Shown here: piece by piece, positions 8,862-38,609 of the stretch
Layout: every line of letters starts with the position of its first letter
Numbering within the stretch: position 1 is the first letter of the stretch
Source: a virus
UHGV virus genome: UHGV-1351772
DNA: 64,000 nt
Reading direction: 5' to 3' (one strand)
Program-made: the position numbers and the translations under genes
Notes under the pieces: generated by a model
Seen by the model: the letters and a program-made list of their open reading frames with translations, nothing else
Told to the model about the DNA's origin: nothing
Database searches by the model: none

Positions 8862-8902
8862 TCTACCTACCTCCGAAAGGAGGTAGGTACTTTTATTTAT
8901 TT
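8862..8902. terminator. Bidirectional intrinsic terminator between convergent genes
   Basis: Stem TACCTACCTCC / GGAGGTAGGTA with GAAA loop, A-run upstream and T-run (TTTTATTTATTT) downstream. Confidence 0.7.
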
Positions 8903-9727
8903 CGCCAGATCTGCTTCTTTTACAAAGATACCGTCGGCGTTCAGATAACCTTTACGGTCTTTGATTTCGTGCCAGGCCAAAGAGAAACAATGGCGAATGT
9001 TAAGACGATAATAGAGAGCGAGTCGCGCAAGACGATGTAAAGCCCAACCTAACGTAACAGTACCCAGTTCAGTACGTAAGAACGCAGTAGCGAAGATTTC
9101 GGTAGCCTCTAAATACAACTGGTGTGGATATTTGGTATCGTTTAAACGTTCTTCAACGTCAGCGACATCATCTACCTGCAATTGTAAACCGCGTTCGATG
9201 ACTTCAGCGGTTGTCATTCCGCCAGTCACTCTGTCCTTATCCAGTTCCAGGATGTTTACCAGAACCACCAACGCATCGCCGATGCCGTCCATGATCAGTT
9301 CAGGTTTGTTTTTGCTGATACCTGTTGCAATCTCACCAAATTCTTCATAGAACTTTGTGATTTGAGTTTCCAGTTTACCGTTGTCGAGAATACCACGTTC
9401 TTTAGACCAACCTTTAACACGTTCTACACAGTTTTCAATAGAGTAGACCGGAACAGATTCTGTATGCATTACCGTGCCGTTGTAAACAGCATCGGTAAGC
9501 TTAATAGGCGCTACAATTGTTTCGATGTCCAGTTCTTGATTACCGGTGTGACGTTTACCTTCTACACGAATACGGTTGGTACCAGGGTTTACACCAATTG
9601 TGTAAATAGCATCGAACTGTACTGCATTCTCATTCAGAGCGCGCAGTTGTGCGTTAACTTCTTCCAGGTGCTGACCAGGATTAACCACGATGTTGTAAAT
9701 AGTGTTGATGTCAAAACGTTCGCCCAT
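8897..9727 (-). CDS. MazG-like nucleotide pyrophosphohydrolase domain protein with extra N- and C-terminal regions
   Basis: 276 aa; central segment YEEFGEIATGI...MDGIGDALVVLVNILE fits the MazG EExGE...D.hGD.L pattern; flanking regions unassigned. Confidence 0.4.
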   Translation of the reverse strand: MGERFDINTIYNIVVNPGQHLEEVNAQLRALNENAVQFDAIYTIGVNPGTNRIRVEGKRHTGNQELDIETIVAPIKLTDAVYNGTVMHTESVPVYSIENCVERVKGWSKERGILDNGKLETQITKFYEEFGEIATGISKNKPELIMDGIGDALVVLVNILELDKDRVTGGMTTAEVIERGLQLQVDDVADVEERLNDTKYPHQLYLEATEIFATAFLRTELGTVTLGWALHRLARLALYYRLNIRHCFSLAWHEIKDRKGYLNADGIFVKEADLAK

Positions 9728-10658: not shown

Positions 10659-10955
10659 TTATTGAAAATCTCGTTTGGCCTTGCTGATGATTTGAGATAT
10701 TCGGCTTGGCGTCACTCCGTGTATTTCGGCCAATTTCTTGTTACTTAGGCCACCCAATTTACCAACAAGAATATTCAATACACGTAAGTCTTTTAACGTT
10801 GCCGAAATCTTTTCTAAGATTTCGATATCAGCTTGATCAAACTTACCTTTGGTCTGCAATGCTATCCCAGCACGCTCGGTAATAGTTTTTAGCTCAGCTA
10901 ATCGACTAATGCCGAAAGAAGTTAACTCCGCGTACGATTTCTCATTAATCATCAT
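10659..10955 (-). CDS. Small helix-turn-helix DNA-binding protein (sigma-70 region-4-like)
   Basis: 98 aa; C-terminal segment LSNKKLAEIHGVTPSRISQIISKAKRDF resembles sigma region 4 / HTH regulators. Confidence 0.4.
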   Translation of the reverse strand: MMINEKSYAELTSFGISRLAELKTITERAGIALQTKGKFDQADIEILEKISATLKDLRVLNILVGKLGGLSNKKLAEIHGVTPSRISQIISKAKRDFQ

Positions 10956-10962
10956 GTACCCC

Positions 10963-11997
10963 TTAGACAGCTATGGGAGCTTTAATTGTGTCGTGCGATT
11001 GATATCCAACCAATTCGAAGTCTTCGAATTTGTAATCGAAGATGGAATCAGGTTTACGTTTGATAACCAGTTTAGGTAGCGGGTAAGGTTCGCGAGTAAG
11101 TTGAAGTTTTGCCTGCTCCAGATGGTTAGAGTAAAGATGAACATCTACGCCACTATAAACCAACTCGTCTGGAACCATATTGAGTTGTTGAGCAATCATG
11201 TGAGTTAACAACGCGTAAGAAGCGACGTTAAACGGTGCGCCAAGTAGGTAATCGTTGCTCCGCATCATGTAAAAACACGAAAGTTTACGACGAGGGATAC
11301 CTTCACGATCTAAGGTTTCATGAAGTCGTTCTTCGTTATCGATATCTTCGTGGTTAATAAGCGGTGCGTTCGCAAACTTTTCCGGTTCGTTTACTTCGTA
11401 CCAATCCAGTCGTTCAAGCAACGTCATTTCTGTTGTGTAAAATTGGAAATAGTTGTGACATGGATTGAGTGCCATATCGTCCAGGTCACCTACATTCCAG
11501 GCACTAACGATAATACGGCGGGAGTCAGGGTCTTCACGAAGTTGTTGGATAACTTTACTGATCTGGTCATGTGCTTTTTCATAAACCAAATACGTCGTAC
11601 TATCTTCCTTCATATTCCCGATATACTTGTAACCCCGCTGCATTAGTTGTTGTGTACGTCTTACGTCATGACACTCCACAACTTTACAGTCGCGCCATTC
11701 CCGCCACTGGTGTCCGTAGACAGGACCTAAATTCCCTTCTTCATTCGCCCAAGCATCCCAGATTTTTACCCCGTTCTCTTGCAGGTACTTCACGTTAGTG
11801 TCACCGTTTAAGAACCACAATAGTTCATGAATGATACTTTTCAGGTGAACCTTTTTCGTAGTAACTAATGGGAAACCTTCTTTCAGGTCAAAACGTAGTT
11901 GACGACCAAATACAGAAAGTGTCCCTACACCTGTGCGGTCTTTCTTGACAACACCGTTATCCAGAATGTCTTGCATTAACGCTAAATACTGTTTCAT
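10963..11997 (-). CDS. thyA: Thymidylate synthase family enzyme (ThyA-like) with two internal insertions
   Basis: 344 aa; collinear with E. coli ThyA from N-terminus ([15 protein letters not shown]...DRTG.GTLS.FG) to C-terminus ([24 protein letters not shown]...IKAPIAV); catalytic PCH and [10 protein letters not shown] motifs present; about 35 and 45 extra residues after WREW and after FQFY. Confidence 0.85.
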
Positions 11998-12314
11998 TTG
12001 TTATTATTCCCCATTCGTTTCGTTAAAATGTCTAAATTACGTTGCGCTTGCTCAGGACTAAAAATAATGTTTTCCTGGCTATACGTTACATGGAAATGTT
12101 TTTTGTTAACAATCTCAACCTTAAGGCCACGAACTTCGAATTGCCGTTTAGCCTCTTCAACCTTTTTTGGTGAGATTCTAAGAAGACCCGGAAATAGTTC
12201 GTCTGCAGGAACGTAGTATTTGATTTCCTTAGTTTCGGGAATTAATTCGATTCTATCTAAACTGACGCTTATAATCTCGTCAATCTTTTTCTTTATATTG
12301 TCGTTCACAGTCAT
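11994..12314 (-). CDS. Hypothetical protein
   Basis: 106-aa ORF, 4-nt overlap with upstream gene. Confidence 0.45.
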
Positions 12315-16906: not shown

Positions 16907-17717
16907 TCTGGTCTCCAATTTGGTATTCGTCAAGGTTTACCGTGACCTGAACTTCGTAGATTTTATTGTCTTTCTGACGCCTTAAGGTCAGAAGGATTTC
17001 GAAACTACGAACATCAATTGCCTTGAGTACCCTCATAAACCATTTCCAGGAAAACTTCTTTTTTAACCTTAGATTGTGCTGCATGTTGTGCCGCAAATCA
17101 TTTCGTTTCGACGGTGTCTGCTCACAGTTAGCAGGATCGTTAACGAAGTTTGTGGAAAGACGGTACCACCAATCCGCATTCATTTTCATGTTTGCGAAGA
17201 TAGTCCAAGTTAGCCGAGATAACGGATGCACCATCATCTTTGCGGTCTCACCACAGTTCTGGAAATAACGGTTCAATTGCGCAGTTGCAGACTCTTTAGG
17301 TCGTTCGTCGTTATCTTCGAACAAATCCCGAGCGAGATCTTCACGCACGCGTGTGGTAATTTCAGATACGGTTTTTGTTTTGAAGTGTCCTCGGTAAGTG
17401 GTTACACAAATCCGCAGTGTCTCCACTCCGGTAATCACCAACCCTTCTGTAAAACCTCGCCAGGTAAGATCGACAGGTAGTGCAGGAATGTTACCTGAAC
17501 TCAGCTTCGTGGAGATACGTTGTATTCGATCGTCCATCGTTGCTTTTGAACGTGTTTTAAATTCCGGAGACAGAATATGTTTGGCGACGGCGAGTTTATA
17601 ATCCGAAGGCTTCCATCCGATCAATTCTTTATAATTCCAATATAGTGTTTGAAGTGGTCCGCCTGCACGTTCGTCTTCAGCGTCCACGACCACACTTACT
17701 TTTTTGCTATCCATCAC
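16872..17717 (-). CDS. Hypothetical protein
   Basis: 281-aa ORF. Confidence 0.45.
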   Translation of the reverse strand: MMDSKKVSVVVDAEDERAGGPLQTLYWNYKELIGWKPSDYKLAVAKHILSPEFKTRSKATMDDRIQRISTKLSSGNIPALPVDLTWRGFTEGLVITGVETLRICVTTYRGHFKTKTVSEITTRVREDLARDLFEDNDERPKESATAQLNRYFQNCGETAKMMVHPLSRLTWTIFANMKMNADWWYRLSTNFVNDPANCEQTPSKRNDLRHNMQHNLRLKKKFSWKWFMRVLKAIDVRSFEILLTLRRQKDNKIYEVQVTVNLDEYQIGDQNENRPNNQSDK

Positions 17718-17747
17718 ATCACCTTGTTACAAGGGGTTACTGGTTTA

Positions 17748-18296
17748 TTAAATAGGACGTTCTAAAAGGTAGTGTTCAATCAACGTTTCCAACTCCCGGA
17801 ATAAATGCGCAGTTTGATTTACCAGCGCTTTGTCTTCGTCGGACTCCGGTTTAAGGAACGCCGATTCATAGGGTTGAATTAGCGCGAGTAATTTACCCAG
17901 CTTATAAGCGGCAACCTCAGGACTGGACGTCCCAAAATAAGTGTCTAGCCATCGGTATTCCGCCAAGTCGTTTCGTTTATTTAAAGCGTCAGGTAATGGC
18001 AGCCATTCGATTGAACTCCTGTTAATTGCTCGTTGGTATTCATTAATGAGAAATGCCAAACGTTGATAAACGAGGTCAATGTTATTGATACGCAATTCGA
18101 GGAAACCGCGAAGGCTGGGACGAAAGGGTTCTTCATTTATGTTTAAAGGCAACGTAAGCAATTGTAAGCCGGTAAAGACTCTGACATAGGGGTTGTGGGT
18201 GTTCTTATGGAACTCCTGCTTCAGAGACTCTCTGAGGGCTTTTAAACGATTATTCTCTAACCGTTGTTTAAAACGAGTTATTATTCCTGTTAACAT
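17748..18296 (-). CDS. Hypothetical protein
   Basis: 182-aa ORF. Confidence 0.45.
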   Translation of the reverse strand: MLTGIITRFKQRLENNRLKALRESLKQEFHKNTHNPYVRVFTGLQLLTLPLNINEEPFRPSLRGFLELRINNIDLVYQRLAFLINEYQRAINRSSIEWLPLPDALNKRNDLAEYRWLDTYFGTSSPEVAAYKLGKLLALIQPYESAFLKPESDEDKALVNQTAHLFRELETLIEHYLLERPI

Positions 18297-24126: not shown

Positions 24127-25053
24127 TTAATTGTGGGGTACGTAGCCACGGACAAATGTAGGTGGAATCCAACAAAGTTTTCTCTTTCTTTCACCATTTC
24201 TAGGGCCGACCCAATATCTGCGCCAGTGAGCGCGACGGATGTGGGCAGCCTTAGCATGTTTGATACCCTGCATGGTTTTCAAGTCAGTGTTAAACCCTTT
24301 TAGATAATTCACTTGTCCTGGCGTGATATCTATCTTAACATCGCGTTCACGAGGTTTAACGTCGTAGCTAATACTACCGTTCTTTTTGATTTCTTTGAAC
24401 TTAATATCATTAAAAGACTCCCTGTAATTGGGCGGGATTAGCGTACACAGAAATATCATCGAAGTAGCGGCTTTGGCCAGAGATAACCATAGCATCTTTT
24501 CTTGTTCGTTCTCCACACCGTCGGCATAGTCGATTTCCACAAGCCCGTTTCCTGCGCTACGAAGCTCTAACGAACAAGTGGCAATTGTGGTAACGCCTTC
24601 TGTTAACCCGTAATCAGTATTTGTAGCAATTATAATAAACCTTCTCTTCCCGTTTTTTCGATAGCCGAGAAAGAAAGTCTCATCCTCTTTACCTACGTCG
24701 ATTGCTACAGTCCAAGTAGGTATAAAGTCCAACCATTCTTCAGGGAATTTACTGGGCATCTCAGTCTCGAAAACAAGTTCTCTAAGTGCTTGGTTGGATA
24801 TTAAGGAAGCACCACCGTATAGCCATCCAATTGCCAATGTTTGAGCGTGAAGGGAACGGGGATCTTTGAGACCTAACTCAGCGTCGTAAGGTATAAAGGC
24901 ATTGGTTAAATGGTTACGATTCTTTTTTATCCATTTCGAGACAGGATTTTCCTTTATTCGGTTTTCTTCCATGACATTTTCAAGATGCTGAGACCCCATT
25001 TGTCTAAGGCAGTCTTTAATACCTTTTACTTTTTTACTTTTGTACAAATACAT
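24127..25053 (-). CDS. Hypothetical protein, paralog of 23202-24101
   Basis: 308 aa; AGGAG upstream; C-terminus AAHIRRAHWRRYWVG...WIPPTFVRG. Confidence 0.5.
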   Translation of the reverse strand: MYLYKSKKVKGIKDCLRQMGSQHLENVMEENRIKENPVSKWIKKNRNHLTNAFIPYDAELGLKDPRSLHAQTLAIGWLYGGASLISNQALRELVFETEMPSKFPEEWLDFIPTWTVAIDVGKEDETFFLGYRKNGKRRFIIIATNTDYGLTEGVTTIATCSLELRSAGNGLVEIDYADGVENEQEKMLWLSLAKAATSMIFLCTLIPPNYRESFNDIKFKEIKKNGSISYDVKPRERDVKIDITPGQVNYLKGFNTDLKTMQGIKHAKAAHIRRAHWRRYWVGPRNGERKRKLCWIPPTFVRGYVPHN

Positions 25054-25068
25054 GGTTTATTCTCCTAA

Positions 25069-25107
25069 AATGGTTAAAAATAAAGTAACCCTAGCCGAAG
25101 CTAGGGT
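25069..25107 (-). terminator. Intrinsic terminator (leftward)
   Basis: Stem ACCCTAGC / GCTAGGGT, loop CGAA; T-run on the minus strand. Confidence 0.65.
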
Positions 25108-25112
25108 GTCTA

Positions 25113-29633: not shown

Positions 29634-30368
29634 TTAATCCCTGGTTAATTGATCACGAATCTGCGGCGCAACATACTCGCCCGTTTTCAGTTCTTCGTGA
29701 CAGGCTTTGGCGCGTTCAAACCCGTATTGGCGAGTGACCAAAGCGAGGTGATAAATACGTGCCGTGGTGTAGGCTTCTTTTGCTGCATCCCACATAGCGT
29801 GGTGCTCAAAAGCGGGCTTACCGCGTGTCCAGTAAATTTGCTCTACGGTTAGGTCAGGCTCGAAACCAAATGCAAAGGCTAAACGTTCTGCGGTACGATC
29901 GCTATCCAGTGCACTGAATTTACGGAACTTCCCTGGCGGAATATCACATTGTGCGAACGCGTTCATGAAAATAGGTGCATCGAAGTCAGGACCACGCATG
30001 GTAATAACAAACTCATGTTTTGCGGTGATCTCCCCGAGCCATTTTTGCATCGCCCACAGCGCGTCTGGCAATGCTGTCGTCCCACCCCATGCTTCCGCAT
30101 AGGCTTCACGAGACGGTGCGTATTCGGGTTCGCCTTTACCTTCCCACCAACCAACGGTTTGTGGGTCTTCGTGGAAAATGGCTTTTGCTTTAGGATCGTT
30201 AGGATCGATCCTGATGTATGAGGAACCGACCATTTTCAATGTAGGGACGTCAAAAGCCACTAAACCTGCACTTAACAGATAAGCATCGGGACGTAATGAT
30301 TTGGTTTCAGCATCAGCGCCAATAACCAGCGTCGGTGTGTACGGGGTGACAATTTTTGGGTAGGTCAT
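29634..30368 (-). CDS. DEDDh-type (DnaQ-like) 3'-5' exonuclease
   Basis: 244 aa; Exo I LVIGADAET, Exo II GPDFDAPIF, Exo III HHAMWDAAKEAY. Confidence 0.6.
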   Translation of the reverse strand: MTYPKIVTPYTPTLVIGADAETKSLRPDAYLLSAGLVAFDVPTLKMVGSSYIRIDPNDPKAKAIFHEDPQTVGWWEGKGEPEYAPSREAYAEAWGGTTALPDALWAMQKWLGEITAKHEFVITMRGPDFDAPIFMNAFAQCDIPPGKFRKFSALDSDRTAERLAFAFGFEPDLTVEQIYWTRGKPAFEHHAMWDAAKEAYTTARIYHLALVTRQYGFERAKACHEELKTGEYVAPQIRDQLTRD

Positions 30369-35632: not shown

Positions 35633-36142
35633 TTAGAAGAACGGCTGATTTGGAATGACAGCGTACTCTAAAATGAACATGTGTTCTGGGGCGTCTTCTT
35701 TACGCCAGACCTTGTGTGTCGACACAAGTTTTTCCAGAATCGTTAGAAAACTACGCTGGCAGTATGTGTTTTCACCAAGCAGTAGATTTTGAAGTTCTAC
35801 AGTAGCGTCCATATACGCCTGTTTAAAGACTAAATTACGGTTATACTGCCCGGTAAAATTCCAAAGCAAGACTTTCCCTTCTTCGGTTTCTTTTACCGTT
35901 GGTCGTAAACCACAAATCCACAGTAAGGCAAGGTTGACGTTCCAGTCAAACTCTAAACCTTCTTCTTCGTCATCACCGAATGCTGTGGGTAAAGCATCGT
36001 AAAATTCGTGTTTCTCTGCGAATTCTTCATCCGACTTAATCTCGTCTTCGATACTGCTTCGGACGATACTGTAAACGTCTTTCGCGGTCAATTGTGCGGC
36101 TTTTGTAATGCCTTTATACCAATCGGTTACTACGATGCTCAA
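35633..36142 (-). CDS. Hypothetical protein
   Basis: 169-aa ORF. Confidence 0.45.
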   Translation of the reverse strand: MSIVVTDWYKGITKAAQLTAKDVYSIVRSSIEDEIKSDEEFAEKHEFYDALPTAFGDDEEEGLEFDWNVNLALLWICGLRPTVKETEEGKVLLWNFTGQYNRNLVFKQAYMDATVELQNLLLGENTYCQRSFLTILEKLVSTHKVWRKEDAPEHMFILEYAVIPNQPFF

Positions 36143-36864
36143 AGGGTAACTCCTCTATTGATTGGAAAACTCGTGTTTATCGTATCCCAAATTCTACTAA
36201 CTTCCGCCAGTTGAATCTGACGTGGTGTTTTCTTCGCAAACGCAAGCTGACGTGGGGCCGAGCCCACAACAACAGGCACATCGATTTTCGCGCTATAGAA
36301 CGCGGCGTCTTTCATAAAGCCTGCCATTTCTCGTTGTGCTGCTCGAGATTTGCTTTTGATTCGCGTGTGAGCGCCACTTTCACCCCAGTGGTAAGCTAAC
36401 GCAATTTCAGCCATGGTGGGCTTGCGTTTGAGTCGTTTGGTTAACCCCTTCTCAAGATGTTTAACATACGCGGCAGCCAGCAAAACAGCATTACGCGGAT
36501 TATATAAATCGGCGTTCTGACTAAGACCTAATTCTTTTCCATAAAGCCTTAGCAGATTACGCTTGGTACTTGGAAGCATCTGTACCAGGCTGTGTGCTCG
36601 TGAGCTTTTGTTGTAAGCCTTGGGATCAAAACGTGATTCGCGATAAATCAGCGTAATCATCAGCTTAGGATCAACGCCTTGCTTTCGTGAGATTTCCACA
36701 ATTAACGGGCTGACTTTTTCGAACCGATGTTGGATTTGTGCAAACTCACGCTGATGCTTAGAATGTGGCGTTGACGTTGACGCCTGTGCGTTAAACGCGA
36801 AAAGTGTTACCAGTAAAAGAAAGAAGATACGAAACATTTTGTTTCTCCAGTTGGATTTATACAT
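36139..36864 (-). CDS. Secreted lytic transglycosylase (SLT domain with signal peptide)
   Basis: 241 aa; signal peptide MFRIFFLLLVTLFAFNAQAS; SLT motif YRESRFDPKAYNKSSRAHSLVQMLPST and ALAYHWGESG. Confidence 0.65.
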   Translation of the reverse strand: MYKSNWRNKMFRIFFLLLVTLFAFNAQASTSTPHSKHQREFAQIQHRFEKVSPLIVEISRKQGVDPKLMITLIYRESRFDPKAYNKSSRAHSLVQMLPSTKRNLLRLYGKELGLSQNADLYNPRNAVLLAAAYVKHLEKGLTKRLKRKPTMAEIALAYHWGESGAHTRIKSKSRAAQREMAGFMKDAAFYSAKIDVPVVVGSAPRQLAFAKKTPRQIQLAEVSRIWDTINTSFPINRGVTL

Positions 36865-36937: not shown

Positions 36938-37498
36938 CTATTTAAAAGAGTTTGGAATTAATGACTCTGCTTCTTGATACAACTTATCAGGTAAGTATAA
37001 CGTGTAGCGTTGCCTCCTCGGTTCAAGTTTTTTGTAAAGCCACAAAAAGATTTCTTGTCTTTCCCAGGAATCTAACCACCCGTTTGCCATTCCAAGTGGA
37101 GGGATAGCAACGCTGGTATCCAGATCCTCAGCACAATCCGCCAGTGCGGTAATGCCCGCAGTAACATAAGAAACCTGGGACTTTAAGCGCCAATGGGTTT
37201 TCGTGGGGAGCAAGATACACTTTTCGTCAGAGTAAACGTAAACGTTTCCAATCTTAATTTCGTTTTCACGACACCGCTTACGATAATTCTGGTAAAGGTT
37301 GGGGTAGCGTTCACGACACGCGAGTGCAATGCCGCGACCCATCGCTCCTACGCAGTTAATGGTAACGACTTTATAGTCTTCGGGCGCATTAAAAAGATCG
37401 TTATCAATTTCAGATTCTTTACGTACCGTTAACATAACGAAACGCCCGGAGTTGATGTGTAGTATTAAAACGTGTACCGCCGATTGATAGCTCGACAA
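36938..37498 (-). CDS. Macro domain protein (TARG1/OARD1-like, Macro_2 type)
   Basis: DLFNAPEDYKVVTINCVGAMGRGIALACRERYP and VAIPPLGMANGWLD fit the TARG1-like macro-domain pattern; ORF-finder start is TTG, a more likely ATG is at about 37435. Confidence 0.5.
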   Translation of the reverse strand: MSSYQSAVHVLILHINSGRFVMLTVRKESEIDNDLFNAPEDYKVVTINCVGAMGRGIALACRERYPNLYQNYRKRCRENEIKIGNVYVYSDEKCILLPTKTHWRLKSQVSYVTAGITALADCAEDLDTSVAIPPLGMANGWLDSWERQEIFLWLYKKLEPRRQRYTLYLPDKLYQEAESLIPNSFK

Positions 37499-38159: not shown

Positions 38160-38609
38160 TTAGAATGTTTTGCTAAAATCGACCCACTCACGATCGCGTG
38201 AGTAAACCGCCTGATAGCCGCGTCGGATGAAATACTCTTTTGCTTCTTTACATTTCGCATACATGCCAGTAACAATCTCGCCGAAAACTTCATCAGCTGC
38301 AATTGCTTTGAAAATCTCTTTCATTACACCCCGTTGACGATAGTCTGGGAGCACGTATACCGAACGTATCTTAAGTGAACCGTTACGATTCCGATAACTA
38401 CAGTATCCTACCGCGACATCATCCTGATACACCAGAACTATGCAGTTACCTTCGATCAGCTGTCGCGCATTTAACTTCGGCACCGACGTTTTGATTTTCA
38501 GTAACGTGGCCTGGTGGTCTAAGTAACGGTAGTGTAGTTTGAGTAAATCGGCAGCTTGTCGCTCACCGACTTTAGAAGATGCGTTCAACAAATAAATTTC
38601 CATTTGCAA
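38160..38609 (-). CDS. GNAT-family N-acetyltransferase
   Basis: 149 aa; motif A-like IRSVYVLPDYRQRGVMKEIFKAI. Confidence 0.55.
   Translation of the reverse strand: MQMEIYLLNASSKVGERQAADLLKLHYRYLDHQATLLKIKTSVPKLNARQLIEGNCIVLVYQDDVAVGYCSYRNRNGSLKIRSVYVLPDYRQRGVMKEIFKAIAADEVFGEIVTGMYAKCKEAKEYFIRRGYQAVYSRDREWVDFSKTF

Follow-up and report, generated by a model that had tools for sequence, protein, structure and literature searches.

A ThyA homologue with two folded insertions is probably an ordinary thymidylate synthase of a nucleus-forming jumbo phage

The 64,000-nucleotide stretch of viral DNA analyzed here (virus genome UHGV-1351772; the window) encodes a ThyA homologue with two large insertions, which raises the question of whether this enzyme is a thymidylate synthase (TS) or a dUMP hydroxymethylase. 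A first-pass annotation, made from the sequence alone, had considered both readings possible and had held that sequence alone does not separate them. Our analysis argues that the gene, with a probability of about 0.88, codes for a working thymidylate synthase of the ThyA type (EC 2.1.1.45) in a jumbo phage of the Bapsvirus type (Chimalliviridae), and that the insertions of this enzyme would be surface sub-domains that probably leave the chemistry unchanged. The coordinates of the relevant features are collected in Table 1.

Table 1. Features of the thyA locus, in window positions; protein residues are in query numbering unless marked Ec (E. coli ThyA).
Feature	Position	Strand	Remarks
thyA, putative 344-aa ThyA-type thymidylate synthase	10963..11997	(-)	ATG start; stop codon 10963-10965
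Insertion 1, residues 103-142 (DCKVVECH...LVYEKA)	11572..11691	(-)	boundaries from phmmer alignment to E. coli ThyA
Insertion 2, residues 190-236 (ending ...REGIPR)	11290..11430	(-)	boundaries from phmmer alignment to E. coli ThyA
PCH motif: catalytic Cys180 (Ec C146) and His181 (Ec H147)	11455..11463	(-)	residue comparison
13-residue segment with R246, S247 (phosphate binding), D249 (folate), N257 (uracil specificity)	11227..11265	(-)	residue comparison
C-terminal lid IKAPIAV (Ec IKAPVAI)	10966..10986	(-)	ends at the E. coli ThyA end position (Ec 264)
106-aa ORF upstream of thyA	11994..12314	(-)	without family match; TGA overlaps the thyA ATG (ATGA)
276-aa ORF	8897..9727	(-)	sub-threshold MazG match (Pfam PF03819, E 9e-4, 19.9 bits, cut-off 22)

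The family membership of the protein is clear. Pfam PF00303 spans it from end to end (positions 1-266 of 266, E 4.7e-110), and a phmmer search of the PDB aligned it with E. coli ThyA in three collinear blocks (E 4e-109), in which residues 1-102 match Ec 1-102, 143-189 match Ec 109-155 and 237-344 match Ec 157-264. These matches are far beyond chance, and they bear out the collinearity described in the first-pass annotation. Over the 264 shared positions the core identity to E. coli ThyA is 65%. The boundaries of the insertions follow from the three blocks: insertion 1 takes the place of Ec 103-108, after W101 (120 nt), and insertion 2 that of Ec D156 (141 nt), both in frame. The net gains of 34 and 46 residues, which the E. 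coli enzyme lacks, agree with the earlier estimates of about 35 and 45. The protein also passed the NCBIfam TS equivalogs NF002499 (414.1 bits, cut-off 405), NF002497 (396.7 bits, cut-off 327) and TIGR03284 (341.3 bits, cut-off 108.35). The AlphaFold2 (AF2) model has a pLDDT of 95.8 and matches E. coli TS best among PDB entries (TM 0.96, normalized by target); a Foldseek search of the PDB with this model retrieved TS structures exclusively. Each of 120 close homologues is exactly 344 aa long, and the dN/dS of the core among close homologues (0.05-0.08) indicates purifying selection.

Comparison with E. coli ThyA (PDB 2TSC, 1TYS and others) revealed that the catalytic, dUMP-binding, folate-binding and lid residues all match. 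In E. coli numbering, the protein retains R21, E58, W80, W83, Y94, R126, R127, L143, C146, H147, Q151, R166, S167, D169, G173, P175, F176, N177, D205, H207, Y209, N211 and H212. The catalytic and phosphate-binding set is therefore complete (C180, E58, Y94, R21, R246, R160, R161 and S247 in query numbering), as is the set that excludes solvent during hydride transfer (W80, W83, L177, which is Ec L143, D249 and the C-terminal lid). The first-pass annotation had rightly pointed to the catalytic Cys of PCH and the uracil-specifying Asn of PFNVASY, here C180 and N257 (Ec N177). Among the best 150 cluster representatives C146 is invariant and H147 is found in 148. The Asn at Ec 177 also sets the protein apart from dCMP hydroxymethylases and methylases of the T4 gp42 and XP12 type, since T4 gp42 has at this position the Asp of cytosine specificity. 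Positions 147 and 177 are those that, in the MetaGPA study, separate the TS homologues of cytosine-modified contigs from those of unmodified ones (PMC8670742).

With the E. coli machinery fully conserved, the reaction would begin with the attack of Cys180 on C6 of dUMP, after which the methylene of 5,10-CH2-H4folate would be passed to C5. With the C-terminal lid closed over the active site, a hydride from the folate would then yield dTMP and dihydrofolate, and the latter would be recycled by the phage's own dihydrofolate reductase (DHFR). The protein is almost certainly an ordinary thymidylate synthase of a nucleus-forming jumbo phage, with dTMP as its product.

The source phage is a "Bapsvirus"-type chimallivirus of about 220 kb, a group already described from bacterial assemblies; E. 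coli 98232 and Enterobacter ludwigii have entries of this phage type that are labelled 'plasmids'. It is absent from the phage collection that we searched by megablast, where the thyA region gave a single match of 228 bp with 74% identity. A collinear relative of 222 kb, NZ_CP173450.1, covers 81% of the window with a nucleotide identity that averages 83%. This relative, a genome other than the window's own, encodes DHFR_1 at positions 97030-97566 (Pfam E 5e-47), and DHFR is required by TS and dispensable for a hydroxymethylase (PMC4528723). Close to thyA in the window, the overlap of the 106-aa ORF with the thyA start suggests that the two are probably translationally coupled. The 276-aa MazG-like ORF, whose syntenic counterpart in phage SPN3US is annotated as MazG, may be part of the same nucleotide-pool module as thyA.

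The closest described enzymes come from related jumbo phages. The TS of Seoulvirus SPN3US (ACQ60_gp037, named gp100 in PMC5694885), of Goslar and of Erwinia jumbo phages are full-length, single-piece matches with 58-64% identity and carry both insertions at the same sites. The thyA neighbourhood of the SPN3US group is syntenic as well, with the MazG-like gene, virion proteins and a tail fibre. In SPN3US the insertions diverge far more than the core (74% identity in the core vs 64% over the full length). The enterobacterial-like core, with 65-75% identity to E. coli ThyA, might go back to the capture of a host gene. Among viral models the best structural match is the TS of Pseudomonas phage 201phi2-1 (UniProt B3FJL1, 457 aa; TMq 0.92, 33% identity), so most of the protein including the insertions is matched; this phage is also nucleus-forming, and its TS is 113 aa longer. 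In Pseudomonas chimalliviruses TS-GFP fusions are kept out of the nucleus (PMC9067925).

Insertion 1 follows helix 94-99 (Ec ~93-100) and precedes the DQI helix. It is modelled by AF2, with a pLDDT of 96-97, as a strand (101-108), a helix (112-120) and a beta-hairpin (124-131/134-143), and its dN/dS is 0.03-0.08. An insertion of the same length and register is present in the ThyA of Burkholderia thailandensis (3V8H; NCBIfam PRK13821-type, ~323 aa), which has the top TMq among solved structures (0.78) at ~32% overall identity; residues 97-187 of the phage protein align without gaps to its residues 113-203. Insertion 1 is thus a small alpha/beta module found also in Burkholderia-type bacterial ThyA. 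The B. thailandensis protein is a cellular enzyme and has no sequence resembling insertion 2.

Insertion 2 extends from the tip of the beta-hairpin by which the Cys146 and Arg166 strands are joined. The AF2 model gives helices at 193-203, 205-210 and 222-231 and a lower-confidence loop at ~211-220; the sequence is acidic (14 D+E vs 5 K+R) and its dN/dS is 0.02-0.05. Neither a sequence search nor a Foldseek search of the PDB gave a counterpart, no Foldseek match covering insertion 2. Among ThyA homologues it is nevertheless common: 109 of the best 150 cluster representatives carry it, with a conserved entry motif E-R and exit motif V/I-P-K/R-R, of which an Arg (97/109) and a Pro (101/109) are nearly invariant. 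It is anchored in the phage protein by ...LLERLDW... and a 12-residue exit segment and in SPN3US by ...IDERLDW... and ...EIPRRILSC, and it is also found in Goslar and 201phi2-1. Residues 100-240 are covered to at least 80% by 122 phage records, and most of the clusters bearing insertion 2 come from metagenomic contigs, ten representatives being on contigs of up to 370 kb. The insertions are thus conserved surface additions common to many relatives, and the protein is no singleton. With insertions at both Ec 101-108 and Ec 155-157 and the anchors of insertion 2, it belongs to an informal Chimalliviridae lineage of insert-bearing ThyA.

Bona fide TS are known to tolerate surface insertions, as in T4 Td (47% identity to the phage protein; td adjoins the DHFR gene frd), L. 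casei TS and human TS. For the human enzyme, the offsets between query and chain imply extra residues on the N-terminal side of query residue 101 and also where insertion 1 lies, consistent with the reported insertions of 12 aa and 8 aa (PMC5929524). The inserts of L. casei (50 aa) and human TS (12 aa) in the small domain (Ec ~83-89) occupy a third hot spot, at which the phage protein has no insertion, and the Ec 155-157 hairpin is free of inserts in all three enzymes. The two phage insertions would be surface sub-domains with a stable fold, placed where the TS fold is known to take up indels, and insertion 2 would lengthen the Cys146/Arg166 hairpin by acidic helices.

We weighed three other explanations against that of an ordinary TS, two of which concern the chemistry. 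In a dUMP hydroxymethylase the exocyclic methylene would be quenched by water rather than hydride, and the formation of 5-hmdUMP would open a pathway of thymidine hypermodification. To assess this reading we compared residues, identities and a neighbour-joining tree for SPO1 gp29, M6 gp58, T4 gp42 and manually spliced T4 Td. The three hydroxymethylases share with the phage protein the superfamily, the Cys/Glu/Arg/Tyr catalytic scaffold and the tetrapeptide RSND, and the ThyA fold with N177 would also suit a dUMP hydroxymethylase. The phage protein further differs from E. coli ThyA by Q165M, C168N, G204V, I178V and E82A, of which Q165M, C168N and G204V lie near the nucleotide site and are unlike the TS majority. 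The resulting motif MRSND is that of T4 dCMP hydroxymethylase; N168 is also present in both dUMP hydroxymethylases, SPO1 gp29 and M6 gp58. However, M165 and N168 occur in 28 and 23 of the 150 representatives (15-19%), related ThyA clusters with TS-like residues in other respects, and N at Ec 168 is the sole overlap with the dUMP hydroxymethylase signature. That signature, consisting of N at Ec 147, G-A in place of P175-F176 and no TS lid, is absent, and the phage protein has H, P-F and a full lid. At Ec 147 SPO1 gp29, M6 gp58 and T4 gp42 have N, N and T; all three also differ at L143, P175-F176 and K48, where the phage protein is of the TS type, and have no TS-type lid, this segment being missing from the alignment for SPO1 gp29 and T4 gp42. 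W80 and W83, which the dUMP hydroxymethylases likewise lack, are kept. TS mutants leak 5-hmdUMP when W80 or the lid is lost. Identity to the three hydroxymethylases is 20-25% (20% and 22% for the dUMP enzymes) vs 65% to E. coli ThyA, and blastp against the dUMP hydroxymethylases gave short local matches only (E 3e-4 and 0.01). The neighbour-joining tree, the kind of phylogeny with characterized enzymes that the first-pass annotation had proposed as a check, places the protein in one group with E. coli ThyA and the TS of SPN3US, at a great distance from SPO1 gp29, M6 gp58 and T4 gp42. Some of the genomic context would fit this reading: the relative has a gene for a deoxy-pyrimidine 5'-nucleotidase of the NT5C type, the window has the weakly matching MazG-like ORF close to thyA, and enzymes of these kinds deplete dTMP and dTTP in SPO1-type phages (PMC8989533). 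On the other hand, the relative has DHFR, and the genomes of the SPO1, M6 and T4 hydroxymethylases carry genes for dCMP deaminase, 5-HMUDK, aGPT-Pplase or glucosyltransferase that were not found in the window or the relative. Our tblastn search of these two sequences with M6 gp51-55, gp59 and gp65, SPO1 gp21.8 and gp22.1 and the T4 beta-glucosyltransferase gave nothing below E 0.3, although tblastn is insensitive to remote homologues. A Pfam scan of 62 of the 72 window ORFs (thyA, its ten neighbours and 51 further ORFs concatenated into pseudo-proteins, leaving aside the ten largest ORFs and those between 48841 and 52592) detected no kinase, glycosyltransferase or aGPT-Pplase. The earlier observation that the window has no obvious 5-hmdU kinase or glycosyltransferase gene thus holds, and extending the tblastn search to the 222-kb relative did not change it. 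DNA-modification systems are also reported to be rarer in Chimalliviridae (PMC13282480). Residues, identities and tree being all TS-like, we reject the dUMP hydroxymethylase as very improbable, and in this case sequence comparison does separate the two activities clearly, by identity, equivalog cut-offs, H147, L143, P175-F176, K48 and the lid. A TS with relaxed specificity or product partitioning is also improbable, if marginally less so. In L. casei TS the Gln at the position of Ec 165 orients the specificity Asn, and loss of the Q165-N177 hydrogen bond by Q165M, together with C168N and G204V, might let the enzyme accept dCMP or release some 5-hmdUMP. The three substitutions are fixed in all 120 close homologues, Q165M and C168N being specific to the lineage, and SPN3US TS has the canonical QRSAD and GGDTH, with Q, A and G at 165, 168 and 204. 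Against this reading, N177 and H147 are unchanged, many relatives also have M165, the searches described above found no downstream enzymes for modified nucleotides, and purifying selection is strong, as one would expect of an ordinary essential gene.

The third explanation concerns the insertions, which might lie outside the mature enzyme if the ORF caller had read through small introns, remnants of inteins or decayed mobile-element DNA. T4 td does contain a group I intron, and some metagenomic ThyA homologues have insertions of 100-260 aa at the same hot spots; Pfam found no domain in these except for one weak match to a homing-endonuclease NUMOD-like (I-HmuI) domain. The insertions studied here, however, are in frame and too small for self-splicing elements or inteins, an Rfam search gave no intron match, and their length is identical in all 120 close homologues. 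Both are folded confidently onto the core by AF2 (pLDDT ~96) and are under purifying selection (dN/dS ~0.04), and insertion 1 is visible as protein in the 3V8H crystal structure. On size, reading frame, dN/dS and the Rfam result we reject this explanation.

For the ordinary TS that we favour, the insertions probably leave the chemistry unaltered, because a bacterial TS of solved structure has insertion 1, and insertion 2 is found in many ThyA clusters that otherwise keep TS residues. Their role would most likely be structural, which would mean dimer stabilization or a docking surface for a partner protein. A more specific proposal, which we regard as unlikely but not far-fetched, is that insertion 2, perhaps with insertion 1, is a docking module that ties TS to its partners in dNTP synthesis, such as DHFR, or else to the import or shell machinery of the phage nucleus. 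A variant in which insertion 2, Q165M and C168N change substrate or product specificity is less likely than docking.

These results suggest that the dTMP supply of this phage is most likely ordinary, through its own TS and DHFR pair, and the ThyA homologue gives no ground to list the group as a candidate for thymidine hypermodification. They also show that, although TS is both highly conserved and very well studied, a large set of phage and metagenomic ThyA proteins carries a conserved insertion of 36-50 aa at the tip of the Cys146/Arg166 hairpin. A docking module, if true, would be a jumbo-phage counterpart of the T4 dNTP-synthetase complex, and protein contacts mediated by insertion 2 would bear on how jumbo phages organize nucleotide supply around the phage nucleus.

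The open reading frame of the ThyA homologue begins with an ATG that overlaps the TGA of an upstream 106-aa ORF (ATGA), which places the gene in an operon of tightly packed genes on the minus strand. The 344-residue protein matches the Pfam PF00303 profile over its entire length (E 4.7e-110), and the top phmmer match among all PDB sequences is E. coli ThyA (E 4e-109). The phmmer alignment consists of three collinear blocks, in which residues 1-102, 143-189 and 237-344 correspond to E. coli (Ec) residues 1-102, 109-155 and 157-264; in a global alignment 174 of the 264 shared positions are identical (66%). The first-pass annotation had described a ThyA homologue collinear with the E. coli enzyme, keeping the PCH and PFNVASY motifs and interrupted by two large insertions. 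All of this was confirmed, and the block boundaries place insertion 1 at residues 103-142 (net +34) and insertion 2 at residues 190-236 (net +46). Directly downstream of thyA lies a 98-aa ORF that, judged from its profile matches, may encode a small DNA-binding regulator co-transcribed with it.

Positions of thyA and of other features in the window and in the relative genome NZ_CP173450.1
Feature	Position	Strand	Remarks
thyA	10963-11997	-	ATG start, 344 aa
MRSND region, residues 245-257	11227-11265	-	Ec Q165 to M, C168 to N
ORF with helix-turn-helix and sigma-70 region 4 matches, sub-threshold	10659-10955	-	98 aa; C-terminal, E ~1e-3
Rv2179c-like 3'-5' exoribonuclease	29634-30368	-	E 2e-10
SLT transglycosylase	36139-36864		adjoins Macro ORF
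Macro domain ORF (ADP-ribose binding or hydrolase)	36938-37498	-	186 aa; Pfam E 2.8e-5, 24.5 bits (cut-off 22)
Small GNAT acetyltransferase	38160-38609	-	E 4e-7
NT5C-type deoxy(pyrimidine) 5'-nucleotidase	L005 19521-20072		relative genome; Pfam E 4e-6
Radical-SAM pair and D12 methyltransferase/GNAT operon	L002 28603-30724 and L003 11340-13134		relative genome, outside window

Full-length, single-piece tblastn matches with 58-64% identity were obtained to annotated phage thymidylate synthases (TSs) of SPN3US and other Seoulvirus phages, Goslar, Proteus phage 7 and Erwinia jumbo phages. Seoulvirus belongs to Chimalliviridae, the nucleus-forming jumbo phages, and in SPN3US the thyA neighbourhood has the same order as in the window (MazG-like gene, virion protein, tail fibre). 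Proteins with 94-99% identity are encoded on 220-226-kb contigs from Salmonella, Shigella and E. coli assemblies and from metagenomes, and the thyA region is about 92% identical in two complete circular 'plasmids' (NZ_CP173450.1 and NZ_CP134650.1), of 221.9 kb in E. coli 98232, a urine isolate from Egypt, and of 222.4 kb in Enterobacter ludwigii from a gull cloaca. Of the window, 81% aligns collinearly with the E. coli record, with an average identity of 83%. The window comes from a chimallivirus genome of about 220 kb that is related to, and collinear with, SPN3US. At the DNA level, no member of this phage type occurs in the phage collection; Salmonella and Shigella assemblies, as well as metagenomes, commonly contain it. 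The type fits the proposed genus 'Bapsvirus' (Chimalliviridae), with genomes of about 220-249 kb from Salmonella, E. coli and Shigella assemblies that are syntenic with Seoulvirus (PMC12768965), so the occurrence of lytic jumbo phages in assemblies of isolates had been described before. The protein itself belongs to the ThyA thymidylate synthase family and, within it, to a lineage with insertions that typifies chimalliviruses and many metagenomic contigs. The annotation 'thymidylate synthase' is already attached to its orthologues in SPN3US, in Goslar and in the RefSeq 'plasmid' records.

Four lines of evidence, namely curated models, comparison with characterised enzymes, a residue audit and the pathway context, point to a thymidylate synthase. 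The protein passes the NCBIfam TS equivalog models NF002499 (414, cut-off 405), NF002497 (397, cut-off 327) and TIGR03284 (341, cut-off 108). Over the E. coli columns it is 74% identical to the SPN3US TS, 65% to E. coli ThyA and 47% to T4 Td, and 25% to T4 gp42 (a dCMP hydroxymethylase), 22% to M6 gp58 (the dUMP hydroxymethyltransferase of a hypermodifying phage) and 20% to the dUMP hydroxymethylase SPO1 gp29; blastp against the hydroxymethylases gave short local matches only. A neighbour-joining tree groups it with SPN3US and E. coli. The dUMP hydroxymethylase activity that the first-pass annotation had considered is disfavoured by these results.

The residue audit, based on an alignment of 150 diverse representatives and 120 close homologues, revealed that the protein keeps Ec R21, E58, W80, W83, Y94, R126, R127, L143, C146, H147, Q151, R166, S167, D169, G173, P175, F176, N177, D205, H207, Y209, N211 and H212, and that its C-terminus, IKAPIAV, ends at the same position as that of E. 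coli ThyA. SPO1 gp29, M6 gp58 and T4 gp42 depart from TS at H147 (N, N and T, respectively), L143, P175-F176 and K48, and all are devoid of the C-terminal lid. Positions 147 and 177 were reported by MetaGPA to distinguish TS homologues on cytosine-modified and unmodified contigs (PMC8670742). Three substitutions, Q165M, C168N and G204V, are present in 120/120 close homologues; SPN3US has the canonical Q, A and G (QRSAD). The resulting MRSND is exactly the motif of T4 gp42, and both dUMP hydroxymethylases also have N168, which would favour a hydroxymethylase. However, M165 is found in 28 and N168 in 23 of the 150 representatives, or 15-19% of the related ThyA clusters. Those proteins otherwise retain H147, N177 and the lid, and the change looks like a recurrent natural TS variant. 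In TS, W80 and the C-terminal lid keep the exocyclic methylene intermediate from water, and mutation of either leads to leakage of 5-hmdUMP. Both are intact here.

The pathway context bears on the same question. TS requires DHFR, since it oxidises its folate, whereas a hydroxymethylase needs none (PMC4528723), and DHFR is encoded in the complete relative genome (by annotation; Pfam DHFR_1, E 5e-47; T4 Frd match, 7e-12). A sub-threshold MazG-like gene 1.2 kb from thyA and an NT5C-type nucleotidase in the relative genome, which also encodes TS and DHFR, could be read in favour of a hydroxymethylase, as these kinds of enzyme deplete dTMP and dTTP in SPO1-type phages (PMC8989533), but they are uninformative unless accompanied by the other genes of a hydroxymethyl-dU pathway. 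Counterparts of M6 gp51-55 (aGPT-Pplase, PLP enzyme, radical-SAM enzyme, 5-hmdU DNA kinase and one further protein), of the SPO1 nucleotide enzymes and of T4 beta-glucosyltransferase were not found below E 0.3 in the window or the 222-kb relative. Pfam searches of 62 of the 72 window ORFs yielded no kinase, glycosyltransferase or aGPT-Pplase. The earlier remark that the window shows no obvious 5-hmdU kinase or glycosyltransferase is supported, and the search for the kinase was likewise negative in the relative. Chimalliviridae are reported to carry DNA-modification systems less often (PMC13282480). Altogether, we consider a dUMP hydroxymethylase highly improbable and a TS of relaxed specificity very unlikely.

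The relative genome also contains an adjacent pair of radical-SAM genes (265 and 444 aa) and, about 30 kb away, genes for a D12-class adenine methyltransferase and a 328-aa GNAT protein, fused into one operon. None of them resembles the radical-SAM hypermodification enzyme of M6, and nucleic-acid modification functions unrelated to thymidine are possible for them. Within the window, the Macro ORF could, from its domain match, be an anti-defence enzyme reversing ADP-ribosylation. The Rv2179c-like ORF adjoins a 506-aa ORF, and PGAP names the relative's counterpart an RNase H family protein. Two regions between minus-strand gene blocks, 17023-17750 and 24258-25112, contain only short low-complexity plus-strand ORFs and may be intergenic or regulatory, or encode small RNAs.

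Both insertions are translated and constrained: the length is exactly 344 aa in 120/120 close homologues, comparison of the window with three relatives gives dN/dS values of 0.02-0.08 for the insertions and 0.05-0.08 for the core, and Rfam gave no intron matches. Both are also folded according to an AlphaFold2 model built from a 150-sequence alignment (mean pLDDT 95.8, pTM 0.93), the core of which superposes on E. coli TS with a TM of 0.96. Insertion 1 is predicted to form a strand (101-108), a helix (112-120) and a beta-hairpin (124-131/134-143), and insertion 2 three helices (193-203, 205-210 and 222-231) around a single lower-confidence loop. Neither insertion is peculiar to this protein. 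Across insertion 1, residues 97-187 align without gaps with residues 113-203 of the solved Burkholderia thailandensis TS (3V8H); this insertion is that of PRK13821-type bacterial ThyA. Human TS also has extra residues at this position according to the phmmer alignment offsets, in agreement with its reported 8-aa insertion at position 146 (PMC5929524).

Insertion 2 has no PDB counterpart. It is found in SPN3US and other jumbo-phage TSs, and probably in that of 201phi2-1, the best BFVD structural match (TMq 0.92). Among the 150 best 50%-identity cluster representatives, 109 carry it, with an entry motif T-[R/E]-[E/P]-[L/M]-[S/T]-x-x-E-R (Arg in 97/109) and an exit motif [V/I]-P-[K/R/T]-[R/Y/H]-x-L-S (Pro in 101/109) bordering a hypervariable middle of 20-60 residues. 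Among the 144 representatives scorable at both sites, 53 have both insertions, 33 insertion 2 only, 16 insertion 1 only and 15 neither. In the annotated phage collection, residues 100-240 are covered to at least 80% in 122 of 2,880 matching records. The small-domain site of the L. casei and human 12-aa TS insertions (Ec ~83-89) is a third hot spot, empty in this protein and often filled in relatives. Many metagenomic ThyA homologues (P0121-P0270) measure 400-590 aa and have insertions of 100-260 aa at the same three hot spots, Ec ~83-89, ~101-108 and ~152-158. In these insertions Pfam detected nothing but a NUMOD-like match to I-HmuI, a weak one, in P0150; N-terminal extensions of about 140 aa are present in some homologues (P0123, P0143 and P0165).

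Judged from the alignments and the model, the ThyA active site is complete and selectively maintained. By the standard TS mechanism, Cys180 would add to C6 of dUMP, CH2H4folate would donate the methylene, and hydride transfer would then yield dTMP and DHF, the folate being regenerated by the phage DHFR. Both insertions would lie at loops where many TSs tolerate insertions, and insertion 2, which is strongly acidic (14 D+E versus 5 K+R), would lengthen the hairpin between the strand starting at the catalytic Cys and the strand ending at Arg166. No published description of these insertions was found in the literature, and insertion 2 is a structural variant of a very well-studied enzyme, a modest curiosity and not a surprise. 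Our best guess is that the insertions have a structural or docking role and not a catalytic one, similar to that of the T4 Td surface insertions, for which a part in contacts within the dNTP-synthetase complex has been proposed.
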